Source: Luteibacter sp.
Lineage (GTDB): Bacteria > Pseudomonadota > Gammaproteobacteria > Xanthomonadales > Rhodanobacteraceae
Direction: 5' to 3'
DNA: 64,000 nucleotides
NCBI RefSeq assembly: GCF_036499525.1
Contig: NZ_DASYDO010000069.1
Location: 56,790-120,789 of the forward strand
Shown here: positions 4,599 to 60,893 of the stretch, piece after piece
How the letters are laid out: each line of letters starts with the position of its first letter
Numbering within the stretch: the stretch's first letter is position 1
Translations under genes and position numbers: made by a program
The notes under the pieces: model-generated
Told to the model about the DNA's origin: nothing
Databases searched by the model: none
Seen by the model: the letters and a program-made list of their open reading frames with translations, nothing else

Positions 4599-4705
4599 GT
4601 AGGAGCGCGCCCTGCGCGCGACATCTTTTCGCGCCGGTCCCCGGGCCGGCGCGCCAGCTCCGGGTCATGGCCTCAAAACATGTCGCGCGCAGGGCGCGCT
4701 CCTAC
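4599..4705. repeat. REP doublet (REPIN), GTAG type
   Basis: gtaggagcgcgccctgcgcgcgaca ... tgtcgcgcgcagggcgcgctcctac inverted arms. Confidence 0.92.
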
Positions 4706-6576: not shown

Positions 6577-6683
6577 GTAGGAGCGCGCCCTGCGCGCGAC
6601 AGCTTTTCGCCTCAGTCCTGAAGCTAGCGCGCCAACTCCAGGGCACGGCCTCAAAAGCTGTCGCGCGCAGGGCGCGCTCCTAC
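6577..6683. repeat. REP doublet (REPIN), GTAG type
   Basis: Same inverted arms as 4599-4705 with a related spacer. Confidence 0.92.
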
Positions 6684-22824: not shown

Positions 22825-22931
22825 GTAGGAGCGCGCCCTGCGCGCGACATGTTTTGAGGCCGAAACCGGGAACTGGCGCGCCAGCTTGCCGACCGGGGCG
22901 AAAACATGTCGCGCGCAGAGCGCGCTCCTAC
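22825..22931. repeat. REP doublet (REPIN), GTAG type
   Basis: gtaggagcgcgccctgcgcgcgaca ... tgtcgcgcgcagagcgcgctcctac. Confidence 0.92.
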
Positions 22932-38016: not shown

Positions 38017-38119
38017 GTAGGAGCGGACCTGTCCGCGACAGCTGTTGAGGACGTGCCTTGGAGAGCACGCGTGAGTCAGGACCGAGGCGAAGAGCTGTCG
38101 CGGACAAGTCCGCTCCTAC
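38017..38119. repeat. REP doublet, variant family (GTAGGAGCGGAC..GTCCGCGA)
   Basis: gtaggagcggacctgtccgcgaca ... tgtcgcggacaagtccgctcctac. Confidence 0.88.
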
Positions 38120-40277: not shown

Positions 40278-41515
<1,238 letters not shown>

Positions 41516-47099: not shown

Positions 47100-47207
47100 G
47101 TAGGAGCGCGCCCTGCGCGCGACATGTTTTCGCCCCGGTCCCGGAGTTCACGCGCCAGCTCCGAGGTCACGGCCTCAGAACATGTCGCGCGCAGGGCGCG
47201 CTCCTGC
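47100..47207. repeat. REP doublet (REPIN)
   Basis: gtaggagcgcgccctgcgcgcgaca ... tgtcgcgcgcagggcgcgctcctgc. Confidence 0.9.
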
Positions 47208-49601: not shown

Positions 49602-49709
49602 GTAGGAGCGCGCCCTGCGCGCGACAGCTTTTGAGGCCCTGTCTTGGAGCGGGCGCGCCAGCACCGGGAACCGGCGCGAAAGTCTGTCGCGCGCAGGGCG
49701 CGCTCCTAC
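49602..49709. repeat. REP doublet (REPIN)
   Basis: Canonical inverted arms. Confidence 0.92.
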
Positions 49710-51387: not shown

Positions 51388-51870
51388 CTACGCGTCGCTT
51401 TCCTTACCGCTGTAAGCGGTGATCGGCTTTTCGGGCGTTGGCCGCGCCATGGCGCGGCCGAAGATGCCGATCGCGCGGGCCAGCGGCGTCAAGGTCTGCC
51501 ATAGCTCGTCGTCGTTGAGCAGGCGGTAGATGCCACGTACACCGGGCGCCGCATCGTCCGGTTCGTGCCGCCCGGCTTCGAGTACCTGCGCGGCTTCGCG
51601 AATGGCCTCCGCGAATTTGTAGACGGCTCCCGGTGGCACCTTGCCAAGCACCATCGCAAGCGCCGAGAGGTTCTGCATGACGTTACGCGCGCCGTCGGTT
51701 TCCAGCCCTTTCACCACGATGGCGGCGATACCCTGGTTAGCTGCGACGATGTCGTTCGCCAGGCGCAGCACGCCGTGTTCGTGCAGGGTTTCCACGAGCC
51801 TGTCCAGTTCCTCGCGCGCTGTGGCATGCGTGCGGACGGGCGTGGGTTTGAAATTGAGGGGCTCGGCCAT
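51388..51870 (-). CDS. DUF1641-family protein (YjgD/ForE-like partner of the molybdoenzyme)
   Basis: Helical 160 aa protein; VETLHEHGVL and GIYRLLNDDEL pattern; start overlaps the molybdoenzyme stop (TGATG). Confidence 0.75.
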   Translation of the reverse strand: MAEPLNFKPTPVRTHATAREELDRLVETLHEHGVLRLANDIVAANQGIAAIVVKGLETDGARNVMQNLSALAMVLGKVPPGAVYKFAEAIREAAQVLEAGRHEPDDAAPGVRGIYRLLNDDELWQTLTPLARAIGIFGRAMARPTPEKPITAYSGKESDA

Positions 51871-54842
51871 CACAGCGTCTCCGGATGCTCGATGTGCCGG
51901 GGCGGTTGTTCGTATTCCGGACGTTCCCACTTCGCCCGCGCATCCGGGCCGCCGTTCGGCGTGCGCCGGCCGTAGCGGAAATTGCGATAGGGCAAGGCAG
52001 GCTCCCCTTTGGGGCGGGGCAGCTTCTCGATGCGCACGGCAAGCTCCTTGTAGCCGGGCGTGTTGACGTCGGGATCGTGGTGCTCGCCGGTGAGCGCGTT
52101 CACACCCGGCTTCGAGTGATGGATGGGCAAGAACAACGTATTGCCCTGCACCCGATCGGTAACCACGGCGCGCACTTCCACGCTGGCGCGTCGCGACGTC
52201 ACCTTCAACCAGGTACCGTCCTCGATACCGCGCTCGCGCGCGAGATCCGTACCGATTTCCACGAACCAGTCCGGCGACAGATGGTCGATGCGACCGCCGC
52301 GTCCCGTCTGGTTCCTGGACTGGAAGTGTTCAAGCAACCGGCCGTTGTCGAGCATGAGGTCGTAGGTTTCGTCGGCTTCCTCACCTGGCGCCTTCCATTC
52401 CAGGGGGTACAGCTTCGCCTTGCCGTCGGGGAACTTGAACTTCTCCGTGTAGAGAAGTGGCGTGTCCTTGCCGTCGGCCGTGACGGGCCACTGCAGGGAC
52501 TTCCAACCCTCGAGCCGCTCGTAGCTCACCCCGGCGAACATCTCGGCGATGCCGGCGCATTCGCGCATGATGTCCGCCGGCCCCGTATAGCCCCAGTCAT
52601 GACCAAGACGCTTTGCCACCTCGTTGAGGATCCACCAGTCCGGCCGGCTGTCACCCAACGGCGGCATCACCTGGTGGAAGCGCTGGATGCGTCGTTCGGT
52701 GTTGGTGAACGTACCGTCCTTCTCCACGCTGGGGCATGCGGGCAGCACCACGTCGGCGAATTGCGCCGTCCGGCTCAGGAACATGTCCTGCACCACGAAG
52801 AAGTCCATGCCGGAGAAAGCTTTCTCCACATTCGAGGTATCCGCGTCGGAAATGGCAGTTTCCTCGCCGATGACCCACATCGCCTTGACCTTGCCCTTCC
52901 CCGCTTCCACGACCATGGCGAAATTGTCGAGTCCGGGTTCGTTCGAGAGGCGCTCCACGGGGACGCCCCAGGCTTTCGCCCATTTCGCCCGCACGGCTTC
53001 GTCGGTCACCTTCTCGTAACCGGGATAGATGTCCTTCAGGCAGCCGAAATCGCTGGCGCCCTGCACGTTGTTGTGGCCGCGCATGGGGTAGCCGCCCGTA
53101 CCGGGCCGCCCATAATTGCCCGTGACCAGGAGCAGGTTCGACAAGGCCGTGCTCGTGTCCGACCCATGCGTATGCTGGGTGATGCCCATGGCCCAGAGCA
53201 GGCAGACGCTTCCGGCACCCGCGATCATCCGGGCCGCTTCCTCGAGCTGCGCGCGCGGTACCCCCGTCATCGCTTCCGCGAACTCCATCGTGAAGGGCGC
53301 CAGCGAGCGCCGGTACTCATCCAGCCCGTTCACGCGCTGCGCCAGGAAGTCCATGTCGGCCAGCCCTTCGTCCAGGATGTAACGCGCCGTCGCGCTGGCC
53401 CATACGAGGTCCGTGCTCGGCGTCAGCTGAAGAAACACATTCGCGCGATCCGCCATTTCATGACGACGCGGATCGACCACCAGCAATTTCTGCCCACGTA
53501 GCTTGTGCGCCCGTTTGATCCGCGTGGCGATCACCGGATGACATTCGGCCGTGTTGGAGCCCACGAGCACCACCAGTTCGGCCTTCTCGATATCCTTGAT
53601 CGATCCGGCATCGCCACCGTAACCGACGGTACGGAACAGGCCCATGGTCGCGGGGTTCTGGCAGTAACGCGACGAGTTGTCCACGCTGTTGGTGCCGAAG
53701 ATCGAACGCGCGATCTTCTGGGTGAGATAGGCCTCTTCGTTGCTGGCCTTGCTCGAACCGATGAAGCCCATCGCCTTGGGGCCGTGCTGCGCGTGCACTT
53801 CGCGGAGGCGGTTCGCCACGAGGTCCAGCGCCTCGTCCCAGCTTGCCTCGCGGAAGGCGCCGTTATCCCGGATCAGGGGTCGGGTGAGACGGTCCGGGCT
53901 GTTGACGAAATCCCAGCCGAACTTGCCTTTCACGCAGGTAGAGATGCCATTCGCAGGGGCATCGATGACCGGCTGCACCTTCAGGATATGCCGGTCACGC
54001 GTGACCATCTCGAAGGCACAACCCACGCCGCAATACGTGCACACAGTCTTCGTGCGGCGGACCTCGGCCTGCCGCATCGTCGCGTCGATCTCCGAAAGCG
54101 CCGTGACCGGCCGCGCGCCAGTGGTGTTCTCCAGCGCCTTCACCAAGTCGATCAGCGGACGTTTCACCCGCTCTTCCATGGCGGTGAACGGTCCTGCATC
54201 CGGTTGCATGGTCTTTTCCAGCAACGCGTTGCACGGACAGACGGTGACGCAATGACCGCAGGACACGCAGCTGGACTGATCGATGGGGCGGCCGCCGTCC
54301 CAGAGCACGCGCGGATGCTCCGCCGTGTAATCGATGCTGAGGGTTTCGTTGACCTCGACATTCTGGCATGCCTCGACGCAGCGCCCGCAGAGGATGCACT
54401 GGTCGGGATCGTACGTGTAGAACGGATTGCTCGTGTCCTTCGCGTAAGGCTTGCGTACGAAGGGATAGCGCTGGATCGGCATGTCCATCGCGGCGACGGT
54501 GTTGTGCAAGGTACAGTCGCCGAGGTTATGTTCGCAGACGGTGCAATACAACTCGTGCTTGGCAAGCAGGCGATCCATGCCTTCCTCACGTGCTGCCGCT
54601 GCCTTCTCGCCGCGCGTGTCGACATGACTTCCGGGCTGTGCGACGTGATCGCAACTGCGGACCAGCTCGCCATCCACCTCGACCCAGCACGTGTCGCACG
54701 TCTTCAGTGGACCGAGTGCCTCGTTGTAGCAGACGCGCGGCACCTCGATGCCATGGCGGATGAACAGGTCAACCAGTCGTTCGCCTTCCTGGACAACGCG
54801 CGGAAGACCGTCGATGACGATGGTGGGGGCAATGACGGACAT
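51870..54842 (-). CDS. FdhF/YjgC(ForC)-like molybdopterin formate dehydrogenase alpha subunit with NuoG-like Fe-S N-terminus
   Basis: 2Fe-2S C..TCDTC..C; HELYCTVC...C; two ferredoxin motifs (CILCGRCVEAC, CVSCGHCVTVCP); CTYCGVGC; CVKGKFG; SSRYCQ; RGHNNVQG; no Tat signal; start set at MSVIA. Confidence 0.88.
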   Translation of the reverse strand: MSVIAPTIVIDGLPRVVQEGERLVDLFIRHGIEVPRVCYNEALGPLKTCDTCWVEVDGELVRSCDHVAQPGSHVDTRGEKAAAAREEGMDRLLAKHELYCTVCEHNLGDCTLHNTVAAMDMPIQRYPFVRKPYAKDTSNPFYTYDPDQCILCGRCVEACQNVEVNETLSIDYTAEHPRVLWDGGRPIDQSSCVSCGHCVTVCPCNALLEKTMQPDAGPFTAMEERVKRPLIDLVKALENTTGARPVTALSEIDATMRQAEVRRTKTVCTYCGVGCAFEMVTRDRHILKVQPVIDAPANGISTCVKGKFGWDFVNSPDRLTRPLIRDNGAFREASWDEALDLVANRLREVHAQHGPKAMGFIGSSKASNEEAYLTQKIARSIFGTNSVDNSSRYCQNPATMGLFRTVGYGGDAGSIKDIEKAELVVLVGSNTAECHPVIATRIKRAHKLRGQKLLVVDPRRHEMADRANVFLQLTPSTDLVWASATARYILDEGLADMDFLAQRVNGLDEYRRSLAPFTMEFAEAMTGVPRAQLEEAARMIAGAGSVCLLWAMGITQHTHGSDTSTALSNLLLVTGNYGRPGTGGYPMRGHNNVQGASDFGCLKDIYPGYEKVTDEAVRAKWAKAWGVPVERLSNEPGLDNFAMVVEAGKGKVKAMWVIGEETAISDADTSNVEKAFSGMDFFVVQDMFLSRTAQFADVVLPACPSVEKDGTFTNTERRIQRFHQVMPPLGDSRPDWWILNEVAKRLGHDWGYTGPADIMRECAGIAEMFAGVSYERLEGWKSLQWPVTADGKDTPLLYTEKFKFPDGKAKLYPLEWKAPGEEADETYDLMLDNGRLLEHFQSRNQTGRGGRIDHLSPDWFVEIGTDLARERGIEDGTWLKVTSRRASVEVRAVVTDRVQGNTLFLPIHHSKPGVNALTGEHHDPDVNTPGYKELAVRIEKLPRPKGEPALPYRNFRYGRRTPNGGPDARAKWERPEYEQPPRHIEHPETL

Positions 54843-54960
54843 AGGGTCAGCGTGAGCGCGAATCCGGCCACGTTCGGTGTACGCCGCGCGTTTCCCGGCT
54901 TCACGAATCCCGCACGGGCCCACGAATAGCGTGAACGCGTTAGGCCGGTACGAGAGGGAG

Positions 54961-55611
54961 ATGGCACAGATTTTCCACCCGCGCTCCGGCCTCTACGCCA
55001 AGCTGGCGATGCTGGGCATGCTGGTGGCCGCCGTCACCGCCGTCTTCGTCTGGCGCGGCGTCACCGCGGAGCCGGACAGGGAAAACGAGGCCGTGGAACA
55101 GCCGGTACCTTTCAGCCACCAGCACCATGTAGGCGAGGTCGGCATCGACTGCCGCTACTGCCATGCGGGCGTGGAGACCGATGCATTCGCCGGCATACCG
55201 CCGATATCGACGTGCATGACATGTCATTCGCAACTTTTTATGGATCAGCCGCCGCTGGCACCTTTGATTGAAAGCTGGCGCACCGGCGTACCCCTGCACT
55301 GGAACCGGGTCAACGACCTTCCCGACTTCGTGTACTTCGACCATTCCATTCATGTGGCAAAAGGTGTTGGCTGCGTTTCCTGCCACGGACGGGTGGACCG
55401 CATGCCGTTGATGCGCCGCGTCGCCTCGCTGTCGATGAAGTGGTGCCTGGAGTGCCATCGCCATCCGGAACGCTTCGTGCGCCCACGGGACCAGGCGTTC
55501 GCCATGGACGACCGCCATCCCGGCGCCGACGATGCGCTTGGCATACACCTCGTCGACGCGTATCGGATCGACCGGCGTCGCCTGACGGATTGTTCGATAT
55601 GCCACCGGTGA
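54961..55611 (+). CDS. actA: Alternative complex III pentaheme cytochrome c subunit
   Basis: Five CxxCH (CRYCH, CMTCH, CVSCH, CLECH, CSICH); N-terminal TM; PVPFSHQHH, LPDFVYFDHSIH. Confidence 0.88.
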   Translation: MAQIFHPRSGLYAKLAMLGMLVAAVTAVFVWRGVTAEPDRENEAVEQPVPFSHQHHVGEVGIDCRYCHAGVETDAFAGIPPISTCMTCHSQLFMDQPPLAPLIESWRTGVPLHWNRVNDLPDFVYFDHSIHVAKGVGCVSCHGRVDRMPLMRRVASLSMKWCLECHRHPERFVRPRDQAFAMDDRHPGADDALGIHLVDAYRIDRRRLTDCSICHR

Positions 55612-58481
55612 GCGCCCTCGATGCATTGCGTGAAGCGTTGCCCCCGCCGGGTTCGCCGCGGTTCTGGCGGGCACTGGACGAGCTCGCCGACGATCCTGCG
55701 CGCCGTGCTCTGGTGGCCGCCGCGTGGCCTCCGCTGGCCGACCTAGAACCCGCCCTCGATCGACGCGGGTTCCTGCGCCTGCTGGGCGCCTCCCTGGCAT
55801 TCGCCGGTCTCGCCGGCTGTTCGGGGCCACCGCCCGGGCGCATCGTGCCGCAGGTCGGTCGCGACGGCCGCTCCGTCCCCCACGCTGCCCGCTATGCGAC
55901 GGCGCTCGCCACCGGTGGCGACGTGGTAGGTGTCTTGGTCGAGCTGCGGGATGGACGCCCGGTCAAGCTGGAGGGCAATCCCCGCCACCCGGCCAGCTAC
56001 GGCGGCAGCGACCCGCGCATGCAGGCAGCGGTACTCGACCTGTGGGATCCGGCCCGCTCAGACGCGCCGCGCCGGCAAGGTGCTCCATCGAGCTGGGCTG
56101 CCTTCGAAGGCGAAGCGGCGGCGTGGCGCCGACGCTTCGGTGAACGTGGCGACGGCCTGCGCATCCTTTCCGGAACCATCGCTTCGCCAACGCTGGCGCG
56201 TCAACGCGACGCGTTACTCGCACGCTATCCGGGCGCTCGCTGGCATGTGCACGACCCTGCGGGCGGGCGCCCGGGCCGGGTGTGGCCGGACATGTCCAGG
56301 GCACGCACGATCGTCGCACTCGATGCAGACCCCTTGGGTGCGTTCCCGGGGCACGTCCGTCATGCGCGAGACTTCGCTGAGGCGCGCCGGACAGCCGATA
56401 CGATGTCCCGCCTCTACGCGATCGAGCCGACGCCGTCGCTCACCGGACGCAATGCGGACCACCTGTGGCCAGCGGCGGCGACCGAGATACCGAAAATCGC
56501 CGCGGCGCTGGCCTCGGCCCTTGGAGTGGCCGTCGATGTTCCCGGGCTGGACGCGTTCTCCCACGGACGGATCGCGGCCATGGCCGGGGATCTGCGCGCG
56601 AATGCGGGTGCGTCGCTGGTACTCGCCGGGCCTTATCAGCCTGCAGTGGTTCACGACCTCGTACGCGCGATGAACCGGCTTTTGGGTAACGACAAGACGG
56701 TGCTGCGCGAACTCGCGACGCAGAGCGATGACGAACCGCTCGAGGACCTCGTCGCCGACATGCACGCAGGCCATGTGGACACGCTGGTCCTGCTGGAAAC
56801 GAACCCGCTGTATACGGCACCGGTTTTCGCGGAAGCACTGCGCCACGTGGCACACACAGCACACCTCGGCCGTTATCGCGACGAAACGGCGGAGGCCGTG
56901 CAATGGCATTTGCCCGCGTTACATCCCTTTGAAACCTGGTCGGACCTGCTCACGCTGGATGGCATCGCGAGCATCGTGCAGCCGGTGCTTGCACCGTTGT
57001 CGGATGCGCGCTCGATGCATGACGTGATGGACCTGTTGCTGGGTGGCGTGCCGAACGATGCGCGCGAGCGTGTGCGCTCGACGTGGCCGCAACTGGACGA
57101 GGAGGCGTGGACATCGGCGCTGCGCGATGGTGTTTTCGAATCCACGCCGCCCCCCGTAGGGGCGCGCCCTGCGCACGACAGCCTATCGCGAAACCCCACA
57201 AGGCCCGATGCCTCACCGCAAGAAGCTGTCGCGCGCAGGGCGCGCTCCTACATGCCCAACGCATTGGAACTGCTGTTCCGCCCCGACGAACACCTGTGGG
57301 ACGGTCGCCATGCGCATAACGCCTGGTTGCAGGAACTACCGCGCCCCGTGACATCGCTCACCTGGGGCAACGCCGCCTGGATCTCACCCGCGCTCGCCGC
57401 GGAGCGCGACCTGCGTGACGGTGATGCCGTTCGCCTGGAGGCGAACGGACGACACGTCGAGGCACCGGTGCTCGTCGTGCCGGGACAGGCGACGAACAGC
57501 GTCACCGTGACGCTCGGCTATGGACGGCGCAGCGGGATCGCCGAAGGACTCGGTTATGACGCCTACACTCTGCGCGACAGCGACGACACCTGGCACATCG
57601 GCGGGCTGGTGCTGACGAAGCTGGATCGCCGCGACATGCTTGCATCCACCCAGGCCCAACAAGACATGGGCCGTCGCGACATCGTCCGCACGGGAACGCC
57701 TGCGCATCCACCCAAAGGCGGAAGTACCGTACCGTCCAGTCTTTACCCCGACGTGGCGCACGGCGAGTACCGCTGGGCCATGAGCATCGATTTAAATGCC
57801 TGTATCGGCTGCAACGCTTGTACGATCGCCTGCCAGGCCGAAAACAATATTCCCGTGGTCGGCAAGGAAGAAGTCGCCCGCGGGCGGCGCATGCACTGGA
57901 TACGCGTGGACCGCTATCACGAAGGGTCGCCCGCCGCGCCGCTTACCTATCACCAGCCGGTGCCCTGCATGCACTGCGAGCATGCACCGTGCGAGGTCGT
58001 CTGCCCCGTCGAGGCGACCGTGCACGACAGTGAAGGCCTCAACCTGCAGGTCTACAACCGCTGCGTCGGCACGCGCTTCTGCTCGAACAACTGTCCGTAC
58101 AAGGTGCGCCGGTTCAACTTCCTGCAGTACGCGGACCTCGCCAGCGAAAGCCTGAAGGCCATGCGCAATCCGGACGTCACCGTCCGCTCCCGCGGCGTCA
58201 TGGAGAAATGCACGTACTGCGTGCAGCGTATCGAGCGCGCCCATATCGCCGCCGACCGCGATAGCCGGCGCATCGCCGAAAACGAGGTGACGACAGCCTG
58301 CCAGGACGCCTGCCCCACCCGGGCGATCGTCTTCGGCGACCTGGGCGACGAGGCCAGCGCGGTCGCAAAGGCGAACCGGTCGACGCGTCGTTACGTCCTG
58401 CTCGAGGAATTGAACACACGGCCGCGCACGACTTACCTGGGCGCCTTGCGCAATCCGAATCCGGCGTGGGGGGAGTCGTGA
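55608..58481 (+). CDS. actB: Alternative complex III subunit B (molybdoenzyme-like domain fused to Fe-S domain)
   Basis: FWRALDEL; Tat motif RRGFLRL with LAGC lipobox; WLQELP; [43 protein letters not shown]; GTG start inferred. Confidence 0.87.
57156..57251. repeat. REP doublet inserted in frame within actB
   Basis: gtaggggcgcgccctgcgcacgaca ... tgtcgcgcgcagggcgcgctcctac; 96 bp, no stop in the actB frame. Confidence 0.9.
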
Positions 58482-59821
58482 CCGACCGCGAGCCCGCCCA
58501 TTTCGCCACACCCGCCGAAGTCACTGACATCGTGACCGGCCTCGTACTGGTGCATCGCGCCGGCCTCCGATGGAAGCTGGCCTTCGGCGCGGCGGCGCTG
58601 CTCACTGCCCTGCTGGTCGTCGCCATCGTCGTACTGCTGGTACGCGGCGTGGGCATCTGGGGGGTGAGCATGCCCGTGGCCTGGGGTTTCGCCATCGCCA
58701 ACTATGTCTGGTGGATCGGCATCGGCATGGCGGGTACCTTCATCTCCGCCGCGCTCTACCTCACGCGGCAGGGCTGGCGCTCCGCCCTGAACCGGTTCGC
58801 CGAGGCGATGACCGTGTTTGCCCTGGCCGTCTCGTCACTGTTCCCCATCTTCCATCTCGGCCGGCCGTGGTTTTCCTACTGGCTGGCCCCCTACCCCGAC
58901 CGCATGGGCCTGTGGCCGCAATGGCGCAGCGCGCTCGTCTGGGATTTCTTCGCGATCGGTGCGTACGTGATCGTGTCGGTGATCTATTTCTATGTCGGAC
59001 TCATCCCGGATCTGGCGGCGGTGCGCGATCGCGCGAGCTCGCGCGGACAACAGGTGTTTTATGGCCTGCTGGCGATCGGCTGGCGTGGCGAGGCGCGCCA
59101 ATGGGAACGGCATGCGACCCTGGTGAAGATCCTCGCGGGCCTGGCCGTGCCGCTCGTGTTCTCGGTGCACAGCATGGTGGCGCTGGATTTCTCCGAAGGG
59201 CTCCTGCCGGGCTGGCATTCGACGATTTTCCCGCCGTTCTTCGTGGCCGGTGCACTGTTCTCCGGCGCGGCGATGGTCATCGTGCTGGCCGTGCCGCTGC
59301 GTAAAGCTTACGCGCTGGAGGAATTCATCACGGACGAACACCTCGACAAGCTCGCGAAAATGATGCTCGCCGTAGGCTGGGTGGTGACCTATGGTTATGC
59401 CGCCGAAATCTTCACCGCATATGTCGGCGGCGATCCGTACGACACCGCCCTGCAACGCCATCGCATGCAAGGCGCGTACGCATGGCTGTTCTGGGCCACC
59501 ATCGCTTGCAACAGCCTTTCCATCCAGGCCCTGTGGTGGCCTCGGGTACGCACCAGCCCCCTCGCGCTCGTCGTCATCGCCCTGCTGGTGCTCACGGGCA
59601 TGTGGATGGAACGCTTCATGCTCATCGTCACCAGCCTGTACCGCGATTTCCTGCCGTCGAGCTGGGGCATGTTCCACCCCACGGTATGGGATGGCGCCTT
59701 CCTGCTGGGGTCGATCGGCCTGTTCGCGCTGCTCTTCCTCATTTTCGTTCGCCTCGTTCCCGTCCTGTCGATCGCCGAACTTCGCCGGCACGCGGCCGAA
59801 CGCGTGGATACCCGGCCATGA
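58478..59821 (+). CDS. actC: Alternative complex III subunit C (NrfD/polysulfide reductase family, quinol-binding)
   Basis: NYVWWIGIGMAGT, FHLGRPW, WDFFAI, PLVFSVHS, WHSTIFPPFFVAGA. Confidence 0.9.
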   Translation: MTDREPAHFATPAEVTDIVTGLVLVHRAGLRWKLAFGAAALLTALLVVAIVVLLVRGVGIWGVSMPVAWGFAIANYVWWIGIGMAGTFISAALYLTRQGWRSALNRFAEAMTVFALAVSSLFPIFHLGRPWFSYWLAPYPDRMGLWPQWRSALVWDFFAIGAYVIVSVIYFYVGLIPDLAAVRDRASSRGQQVFYGLLAIGWRGEARQWERHATLVKILAGLAVPLVFSVHSMVALDFSEGLLPGWHSTIFPPFFVAGALFSGAAMVIVLAVPLRKAYALEEFITDEHLDKLAKMMLAVGWVVTYGYAAEIFTAYVGGDPYDTALQRHRMQGAYAWLFWATIACNSLSIQALWWPRVRTSPLALVVIALLVLTGMWMERFMLIVTSLYRDFLPSSWGMFHPTVWDGAFLLGSIGLFALLFLIFVRLVPVLSIAELRRHAAERVDTRP

Positions 59822-60345
59822 GCGTGCATGGCCGCCTTCTCCAGTTGCACGACGCGCACGAACTGGCCTCCGCGGTCGACGCGCTGCATGCGCTCGGCTA
59901 CACCCGGCTCGAAGCTTTTTCGCCCTATGCGGTGGACGGACTGATGGAAAAGCTGGGGTCGCCGCCGAAACGCATTCCGCCCGCGATGCTCACGGGCGGC
60001 CTGATCGGTGGTATCGGCATGCTCTGGCTGCAATACCACGCCGCCGCGGTGGACTATCCGCTCAACGTCGGCGGGCGTCCTGCGGCGAGCTGGCCGGCCT
60101 TCATGCCATCGGCCGTGGAAGTCGTCATCCTGCTCGCCGTCGTCGCCGGCTTCGTGGCGTTCCTGGTGGGCAGCCGCCTGCCCACTCTCTACCGGCCGGA
60201 GTTCAACGTGGCGTGGTTCGAGGAAGCGAGCCGCGACGGATTCCTGCTGCTCATCCGCGCGGACGACCCGAGGTGGAATGATCATCAGGTGGCCGAAGAC
60301 GTTGCCGCGCTGGAGCCGTTACGTCATGCGGACGTTCCGTCATGA
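59818..60345 (+). CDS. actD: Alternative complex III subunit D (DUF3341)
   Basis: EAFSPYAVDGL, YPLNVGGRP, two TM helices, position in operon. Confidence 0.87.
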   Translation: MSVHGRLLQLHDAHELASAVDALHALGYTRLEAFSPYAVDGLMEKLGSPPKRIPPAMLTGGLIGGIGMLWLQYHAAAVDYPLNVGGRPAASWPAFMPSAVEVVILLAVVAGFVAFLVGSRLPTLYRPEFNVAWFEEASRDGFLLLIRADDPRWNDHQVAEDVAALEPLRHADVPS

Positions 60346-60893
60346 GGCGCGTAGCCATCCTGCTGATCGCCCTCCTGCCGGTGACCGGCTGCGAACGCGG
60401 CATGCACCAGATGTACGACCAGCCGCGTTACGAGCGCGGTGGCGAGGCCCCGCTGTTCGCCGATGGTGTCGCTTCCCGCATACCGCCTCGCGGCACGGTA
60501 CCGACCTCCGACCCGGAAGCGATGCCGGCGCCACCGGCCGTCACTGAAGGCTTGCTCGAGCGGGGACGCGATCGCTACACCATCTATTGCACGCCCTGCC
60601 ACGGTGTGGGCGGCGACGGTGACGGCATGGTGGTGCGGCGCGGTTTTCCGGGACCACCGAGCTACCACGAGCAACGGCTGCGCGACGCCGATGACCGGCA
60701 CCTTTACGATGTCATCACCCGTGGTTGGGGTGTCATGTATCCCTATGCGGATCGCATTGCGCCGGCTGACCGGCAAGCCATCGTCGCTTATATCCGTGCC
60801 CTGCAGTTCAGCCGCCACGCACCCGTGGACCGCTTGGAACCGGAGGACCTCTCACGGCTCCGCGACCTGCCCAGCGAGGGAGCCCGGCAATGA
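60342..60893 (+). CDS. actE: Alternative complex III monoheme cytochrome c lipoprotein
   Basis: Lipobox VTGC, MYDQPRY, CTPCH, GWGVMYPY, IVAYIRALQ. Confidence 0.87.
   Translation: MRRVAILLIALLPVTGCERGMHQMYDQPRYERGGEAPLFADGVASRIPPRGTVPTSDPEAMPAPPAVTEGLLERGRDRYTIYCTPCHGVGGDGDGMVVRRGFPGPPSYHEQRLRDADDRHLYDVITRGWGVMYPYADRIAPADRQAIVAYIRALQFSRHAPVDRLEPEDLSRLRDLPSEGARQ

Follow-up and report, generated by a model that had tools for sequence, protein, structure and literature searches.

How can a palindrome of a kind that is said in the REPIN-RAYT literature to be almost wholly confined to extragenic space (Bertels and Rainey 2011, PMC3116915, PMC3337134; Bertels et al. 2017, PMC5581495; bioRxiv 10.1101/2021.07.10.451892) lie within a respiratory gene, and what becomes of that gene? 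This question is raised by a stretch of 64,000 nucleotides from Luteibacter sp. (assembly GCF_036499525.1, contig NZ_DASYDO010000069.1, positions 56,790 to 120,789 of the forward strand; hereafter the window), in which a doublet of repetitive extragenic palindromic (REP) sequences, or REPIN, lies in frame in actB, the gene for subunit B of Alternative Complex III (ACIII). The element at 57156-57251 was confirmed as a genuine REP doublet of a family associated with a REP-associated tyrosine transposase (RAYT). Very probably, it is a translated REPIN tolerated as a passenger in a disordered linker, without a function of its own. The element and its parts are the following (positions in the window):

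57156..57251, plus strand: REPIN (REP doublet) of family 1, 96 bp, in frame in actB
57156..57179, plus strand: left REP arm GTAGGGGCGCGCCCTGCGCACGAC, with 2 mismatches to the family consensus
57180..57227, plus strand: REPIN spacer (loop), the variable part of the family
57228..57251, minus strand: right REP arm, identical on this strand to the consensus GTAGGAGCGCGCCCTGCGCGCGAC

The initial annotation had placed a REP doublet here with both arms inside the actB open reading frame (ORF), and the sequence reads as it described. The element starts on a codon boundary (57156-55440 = 1716 = 3 x 572), opening at codon 573, and its 96 bp encode 32 residues (573-604 in long-ORF numbering, 520-551 in the called protein), in agreement with the earlier arithmetic and translation. 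The left arm is read GTA-GGG, where the TAG within GTAG falls out of frame, and the ORF 55440-58481 (plus strand) translates across the REPIN without a stop, as had also been proposed. Both arms in actB start at the 5' end with GTAG, as does the family consensus, and the ends of the REPIN form an inverted repeat of 35 nt with 86% complementarity (57156-57190 with 57217-57251), the predicted fold of the element being -63.2 kcal/mol. This copy is the most diverged of the 82 copies of the short class (76% identity to the consensus, the median being 89%); its divergence sits in the spacer, and the arms are nearly perfect. All the sequence-level features of GTAG-type REPs and of REPIN-RAYT systems were found in the element, the usual extragenic location being the single departure, and this departure leaves its sequence-family identity unaffected.

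The family was then followed in the window and in the rest of the genome, which is a metagenome-assembled genome (MAG, a metagenome bin) of 3.84 Mb in 81 contigs, 91.6% complete. At up to 3 mismatches, the window has 15 occurrences of the 24-nt arm GTAGGAGCGCGCCCTGCGCGCGAC, versus 0.01 expected from shuffles, and these 15 arms make up seven doublets (the actB copy included) and one half doublet. A looser search added one doublet of a related third REP type (GTAGGAGCGGACCTGTCCGCGAC), whose inner stem differs from that of the main family. The eight copies that the initial annotation had counted besides the one in actB are therefore accounted for by six full doublets, the half doublet and the third-type doublet:

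4599..4705: family-1 REPIN, 107 bp
6577-6683: family-1 REPIN
22825-22931: family-1 REPIN
40278-40385: family-1 REPIN
47100-47207: family-1 REPIN
49602-49709: family-1 REPIN
22-45: half family-1 doublet, cut by the start of the window
38017-38119: doublet of the third REP type

None of these other copies of the window is flanked on both sides by a coding pattern in one frame, as judged by the G+C content at third codon positions (GC3). Genome-wide, family 1 makes up the dominant repeats, with 529 arms found at up to 4 mismatches (495 at up to 2 mismatches), forming 222 inverted doublets with two size classes. The class of 95-98 bp has 82 copies, of which 20 measure exactly 96 bp, and that of 105-108 bp has 106. 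A frame-restoring "special deletion" was considered as the source of the 96 bp and ruled out, 96 bp being an ordinary size of the family. Furthermore, the genome carries a single Y1/HUH transposase (RAYT) gene, with one match to PF01797 (Y1_Tnp), in the ORF C73:21185-21853, which presents the HWH and YVVANP (Y..NP) motifs. A perfect doublet at C73:21234-21340 lies 127 bp before the Pfam-matched stretch of this gene (from 21467), and the TAG stop of the gene is the TAG of the GTAG of a downstream REP. This is the canonical REPIN-RAYT layout.

Concerning the host gene, the position of the element with respect to the protein domains is as follows:

55599..58481, plus strand: actB, ACIII subunit B, start ATG at 55599, 960 aa, P0002 of the gene caller
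57132..57263, plus strand: inter-domain linker of ActB, VFESTPPP + REPIN + MPNA, 44 aa
57366..57578, plus strand: Molydop_binding (domain IV, beta-barrel), PF01568, residues 643-713, directly after the linker

The protein matches chain B of the solved ACIII structures, with 8k9e_B first (1.9e-232), followed by 6lod_B, 6f0k_B and 6btm_B. Pfam and NCBIfam matches showed a variant twin-arginine translocation (TAT) leader (TIGR04519), a molybdopterin-like module and a 4Fe-4S module (Fer4); this leader, these modules and the actABCDE gene neighbourhood identify the product as the ActB of ACIII. Selection on the gene was measured against three sister species, where dS is 0.9-1.4. The ratio dN/dS is 0.14-0.15 upstream of the insert (codons 130-560) and 0.09-0.11 downstream of it (codons 612-1010). 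Both halves are thus under strong purifying selection, and therefore actB is not the relaxed pseudogene that the initial annotation had kept as an alternative, and the REPIN must be read through. From these ratios we infer that ActB stays full length and functional and that the REPIN stretch is actually translated. The 5' extension of the long ORF (55440-55598) behaves differently: its 53 codons overlap the end of actA upstream of the real start, and dN/dS over codons 1-55 of the long ORF is above 1 (4-7 versus relatives), hence this extension is not coding in the actB frame.

The genes around actB keep the order actA-B-C-D-cytochrome c, and the operon is intact:

54877..55611, plus strand: actA-like multihaem cytochrome c, QrcA-like match at 1.1e-21
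58466..59821, plus strand: actC-like membrane subunit of the NrfD/DsrP type
59818..60345, plus strand: actD, PF11821 ActD at 3.6e-42
60342..60893, plus strand: monohaem cytochrome c (actE-like), PF13442

Upstream of actA, the region 51870-54929 of the window carries large ORFs on both strands (1017 aa on the minus strand, 538 and 474 aa on the plus strand), and the 538- and 474-aa products of the plus strand gave no NCBIfam match at E <= 1e-5.

These data also bear on the possibility that the in-frame element is an artefact of MAG mis-assembly, or that actB is decaying. The genome is a metagenome bin with the fragmentation and completeness given above, the Logan unitigs end in a REP arm and no RNA run was found, all of which would fit such an explanation. 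Nevertheless, actB is collinear on both flanks in one frame, its two sides show the low dN/dS values just described within an intact operon, and isolates carry in-frame REPINs at the same place, among them Lutesp34, with a complete chromosome (CP168517), and the type strain of L. jiangsuensis. An artefact or a pseudogene is hence very hard to credit.

The linker that carries the element was delimited by two conserved anchors, W..AL..G and LE[LI][LV]FRPD (LELLFRPD in the window). Between them, the protein of the window presents 8 native residues, the 32 of the REPIN and 4 native residues. The location had been described as the linker before the C-terminal barrel, and PF01568 does begin directly downstream. 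Among the orthologues, the linkers are rich in proline and alanine, variable in length and unalignable. Those free of REPs measure 26-34 aa, both in Rhodanobacteraceae and in more distant phyla, and in the solved ActBs the linker is about 25-30 aa long with an unrelated sequence, whereas the REPIN-bearing linkers measure 36-54 aa. The orthologue alignment had been expected to show a gap of about 32 aa at this site; instead, the linker is unalignable in all of them. The proposal that a selfish palindrome became a coding insertion is consequently kept as regards the in-frame REPIN, but not as regards the addition of 32 aa: judging from the linker lengths, the net gain is about 10-18 aa, and the REPIN takes up the place of most of the native linker.

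To place the insert in the protein, an AlphaFold2 model of ActB was built on 66 homologues (mean predicted local distance difference test, pLDDT, of 83; predicted template modelling score of 0.85). In this single-chain model, pLDDT falls below 50 at P0002 residues 521-538, within the insert (520-551); the means over blocks of 10 residues are 44 and 42 (521-540), 54 (541-550) and 83 from 551. The flanks of the linker show pLDDT values of 75-83. The insert is modelled as coil with one weak helix, which fits a disordered loop.

It had also been supposed that the closest relatives would be empty at this site. They carry a REPIN of another family there instead. DNA alignment and direct reading revealed a family-2 REPIN, with the arm GTAGGAGCCGCCATGGCGGCGAG, in frame in the same actB linker of several relatives:

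L021:3217-3287, L. jiangsuensis: 71-bp family-2 REPIN, inverted relative to its sisters
L056:3220-3290, Luteibacter sp. Lutesp34: 71-bp family-2 REPIN
L104 about 1948-2017, genome G037: family-2 REPIN of about 70 bp
Luteibacter sp. NPDC031894: element of 89 bp, GCTACAGC subtype, with different flank lengths (11 and 13 aa)
L123:1690-1765, minus strand, JGI contig Ga0065165_1001431 (P0006-like): family-2 REPIN

The right arm of the JGI copy has lost its complementarity and the frame is kept, so that this copy looks like a decaying coding REPIN. The element of L. jiangsuensis is the reverse complement of those of Lutesp34 and G037 (62/71 identities; alignment score of 53 in the inverted versus 28.5 in the direct orientation). 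The JGI copy, which branches earlier, has the orientation of Lutesp34, and since the sister and JGI orientations agree, the element must have been inverted in place in the jiangsuensis lineage, the gene still being in frame.

The counts of family-1 and family-2 arms differ among the genomes:

genome of the window: 495 of family 1, 7 of family 2 (degenerate)
Lutesp34: 411 of family 1, 50 of family 2
L. jiangsuensis: 112 of family 1, 20 of family 2
NPDC031894: 0 of family 1, 35 of family 2

An ActB tree from which the linker columns were excluded groups the REPIN carriers, the window included, in a clade with 99/99 support that is an unresolved polytomy inside. This clade also includes the Logan-assembled P0004 (79% identical), with a linker of 34 aa without a recognisable REP; its local alignments to REPIN-bearing linkers are no better than those of shuffles (p 0.14-0.57) and do not identify it as a decayed REPIN. 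REPs are absent from this linker in the more distant Luteibacter examined. An ActB closer than about 80% to that of the window was not present in a large protein database. In the search for empty-site alleles of the same species, metagenome contigs gave no match to an exact 29-mer, and a degenerate scan of them gave one contig, that of the P0006-like gene with the decaying family-2 REPIN. A family-2 element nested in an old family-1 arm was considered in NPDC031894, where GCACGCCCT stands just before GTAG, and was dropped for lack of a significant alignment.

Two families at one site could have arisen in two ways. One is replacement in place, where an ancestral family-2 REPIN was swapped for a family-1 REPIN at the same boundaries in the lineage of the window, with either the RAYT acting on the GTAGGAGC/GCTCCTAC termini that the two share or another copy serving as the source of a gene conversion. 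The spacing agrees with this, in that the window, L. jiangsuensis and G037 have 8 codons from the G of the first anchor to the element, Lutesp34 has 9, and 12-13 nt separate the element from the LE codons in these four genes. The REPIN-bearing genes form one clade, only 7 degenerate family-2 arms are left in the genome of the window versus 20-50 in the sister genomes, and the REPINs of the site are seen to persist and to change in place, by inversion in L. jiangsuensis and by decay in the JGI contig. However, the clade is a polytomy that includes the REP-free P0004, the copy of NPDC031894 is of another subtype, with its own size and flanks, and no family-2 remnant is found beside the element of the window, where local alignments are no better than shuffles. 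Moreover, the shared flank lengths may just mark the onset of ordered structure, given the pLDDT of 75-83 there, and there is no established mechanism of REPIN replacement. Replacement could thus be proposed only tentatively.

The other way is that both families entered the linker separately and the native linker was lost later under a length constraint. The REP-free P0004 within the clade speaks for these independent insertions, and so does the element of NPDC031894, which differs in REP subtype, size and position. The lengths of the linkers with and without REPINs are also consistent with a loss of native sequence in each of them, and the hrpA linker described below shows a like pattern of REP gain and partial deletion. 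On the other hand, this explanation needs two or three hits within about 100 nt of one gene, and deletions that end at near-identical flanks in the window and in the jiangsuensis group. We give it a little less than an even chance. Under either origin, the linker site of actB is occupied repeatedly or persistently, with the frame kept.

A bolder view takes the linker of ActB for a fixed "slot" for REPINs, in which families are exchanged and elements flip in place while selection keeps the frame and the phase. We consider it rather unlikely. If true, the slot would supply evidence from nature that REPINs are exchanged site-specifically, whether through RAYT or through gene conversion at the shared GTAGGAGC termini, and REP-encoded peptides would be interchangeable linker modules across genes (actB, hrpA, folC and others).

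The actB element is not the only one of its kind in the genome. All 222 doublets were screened for open frames with coding GC3 on both sides, followed by inspection of the translations and Pfam matches. At least five further genes carry in-frame family-1 REPINs, with Pfam domains of one protein flanking them:

C12:2470-2565, 96 bp: hrpA, between the HA2 and OB domains
C71:19586-19692, 107 bp: folC, between Mur_ligase_M and Mur_ligase_C
C45:8583-8679, 97 bp: cobD-like aminotransferase, splitting the Aminotran_1_2 match in two
C74:4313-4409, 97 bp: heme oxygenase, inside the Heme_oxygenase domain match
C62:48825-48928, 104 bp: nonribosomal peptide synthetase-polyketide synthase (NRPS-PKS), between the carrier and aminotransferase domains

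Three other long ORFs across REPINs (C59:43662, C63:5874 and C80:34729) were discarded as antisense or non-coding according to GC3 and the translations. The hrpA site can also be followed in relatives. Lutesp34 keeps a perfect left arm only (L115:1705-1728), G037 keeps the left arm only, with 3 mismatches (L121:1706-1729), the left arm is decayed in G037 and L. jiangsuensis (AGARPARD), and no REP arm is present at the site in NPDC031894. This series therefore indicates that linker coding sequence derived from REPs persists and erodes across Luteibacter species.

The six coding copies, that of actB included, share their reading phase. All of them enter in phase 0 (GTA GGA GCG ... = VGARPARD), and the family-2 elements of actB likewise enter as (V/A)GA... 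Phase 1 is shut by the TAG of GTAG. Across the family, phase 2 (GT AGG AGC...) gives an open reading in 300 of 444 cases and phase 0 in 252 of 444, and phase 2 is used by none of the six verified coding copies; the chance that all six fall in phase 0, calculated from these open-reading counts, is about 0.009. Weak mRNA structure as a common feature of the coding copies was rejected, as the fold energies of the six are spread over ranks 8 to 216 among the 222 doublets.

A single phase in the six coding REPINs and in all the actB REPINs of both families could point to exaptation, in which the peptide or the mRNA hairpin is now functional, as a selected linker or as a pause site before domain IV. 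The nearly perfect arms of the actB copy, despite the most diverged spacer of its class, and the strong hairpin that has been kept would agree with it. Nevertheless, the peptides encoded at this one site by the two families and in the two orientations are wholly different, complementarity is being lost between the arms of the JGI copy, and both the REP-free and the structurally solved ActBs work with unrelated linkers. The phase bias, in turn, can reflect the avoidance of the alternative reading, which contains cysteine. Exaptation seems, hence, improbable.

The tolerated passenger remains the preferred explanation of the actB element, and the course of events could be as follows. A REPIN would have been inserted through the RAYT pathway and would have landed in the only part of actB that is tolerant in length and sequence, the linker before the domain-IV barrel. 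Entry in phase 0 would sidestep the TAG and give a hydrophilic peptide rich in Gly, Ala, Arg and Pro that may be acceptable, and presumably neutral, to the linker. Redundant native linker would then have been lost, or a resident REPIN exchanged, and the hairpin would be unwound by the ribosome during translation. The REPIN probably survives because the TAG is out of phase, the spacer has no stop and the 32 residues replace native linker.

Several points weigh against this explanation. The public runs that hold the sequence are only the DNA of the source soil metagenome, with no RNA run among them. The source is a MAG, and the Logan unitigs break within the right REP arm, so independent re-assembly of the junctions was not obtained; a check of the junctions in Logan, which covered 64% of the run, did not recover the left part and was uninformative. 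The low confidence of AlphaFold is no proof of surface exposure in the assembled complex. The neutrality of the peptide is an assumption, and the strict bias in phase may be a sign that what is encoded is of some consequence. Finally, a hairpin of about -63 kcal/mol is retained in the mRNA and may affect translation.

With respect to known systems, the initial annotation had compared the element with the palindromic elements of Rickettsia (RPEs), and the comparison is apt as an analogy in kind, both lying in frame in genes that still function. RPEs are reportedly (Ogata and co-workers, Science, in 2000) selfish palindromic repeats found in frame in still-functional genes, to which they add a peptide. 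The actB element resembles them in being an in-frame insertion in a gene that remains functional, as its open frame and dN/dS of 0.09-0.15 indicate. Unlike them, it is GTAG-tagged and GC-rich and corresponds neither to the CGTC type nor to the long RPE-1. The hosts differ as well, since RPEs belong to obligate intracellular bacteria that are AT-rich and are not known to have a RAYT dedicated to them, whereas here the host is a GC-rich, free-living soil gammaproteobacterium with a RAYT. Therefore, the actB element acts like an RPE yet belongs to no RPE family.

The closest precedent is the survey of Di Nocera, De Gregorio and Rocco (2013, BMC Genomics 14:522; PMC3733652), who described GTAG and CGTC REPs, mostly as dimers, inside the ORFs of known proteins, where they encode 20-30 aa. 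These authors suggested that intragenic REP dimers sit in flexible linkers or loops, with the families being associated with RAYTs, and equated the intragenic Rickettsia copies, classed as CGTC, with RPE-4 and RPE-6 (PMC3733652). The actB element is like these dimers in its GTAG tag, dimer form, location in an ORF and link to a RAYT; the survey does not include Luteibacter or ACIII, and its text is without the words "orthologous", "same position" and "hot spot". As for the REPIN-RAYT systems mentioned at the outset, the likeness lies in an inverted REP pair of about 100 bp, hundreds of copies and a single RAYT flanked by REPs, and the difference is that here at least 6 of 222 doublets are predicted to be translated parts of genes. 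The solved ACIII complexes (6F0K, 6BTM, 6LOD, 8K9E) match ActB over the full length of chain B and differ in the linker, which is unrelated. In-frame GTAG REP dimers in genes, as well as RPEs, had thus already been described, and the actB case is no new kind of system. A limited literature search found no earlier description of an orthologous coding site that holds two REPIN families, of a coding REPIN inverted in place, or of a reading phase common to the copies. These three features, the two-family site, the in-place inversion and the common reading phase, appear to be additions of this analysis.

For practical purposes, the masking of REPs, or the assumption that they are extragenic, can mislead gene calling in genomes such as this one, and in-frame REPINs offer a way to map linkers that tolerate arbitrary inserts. 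The actB site also provides a test of whether REPINs are exchanged or flipped in place. Regarding the biology of these elements, at least six REPINs are predicted to be translated in housekeeping or respiratory genes of one genome, whereas REPINs are described as extragenic with hardly an exception. In actB, moreover, the site is occupied across species whose synonymous divergence is near saturation, and its intact, inverted, decaying, other-family and REP-free states make up a natural series for the transition from palindrome to coding sequence.

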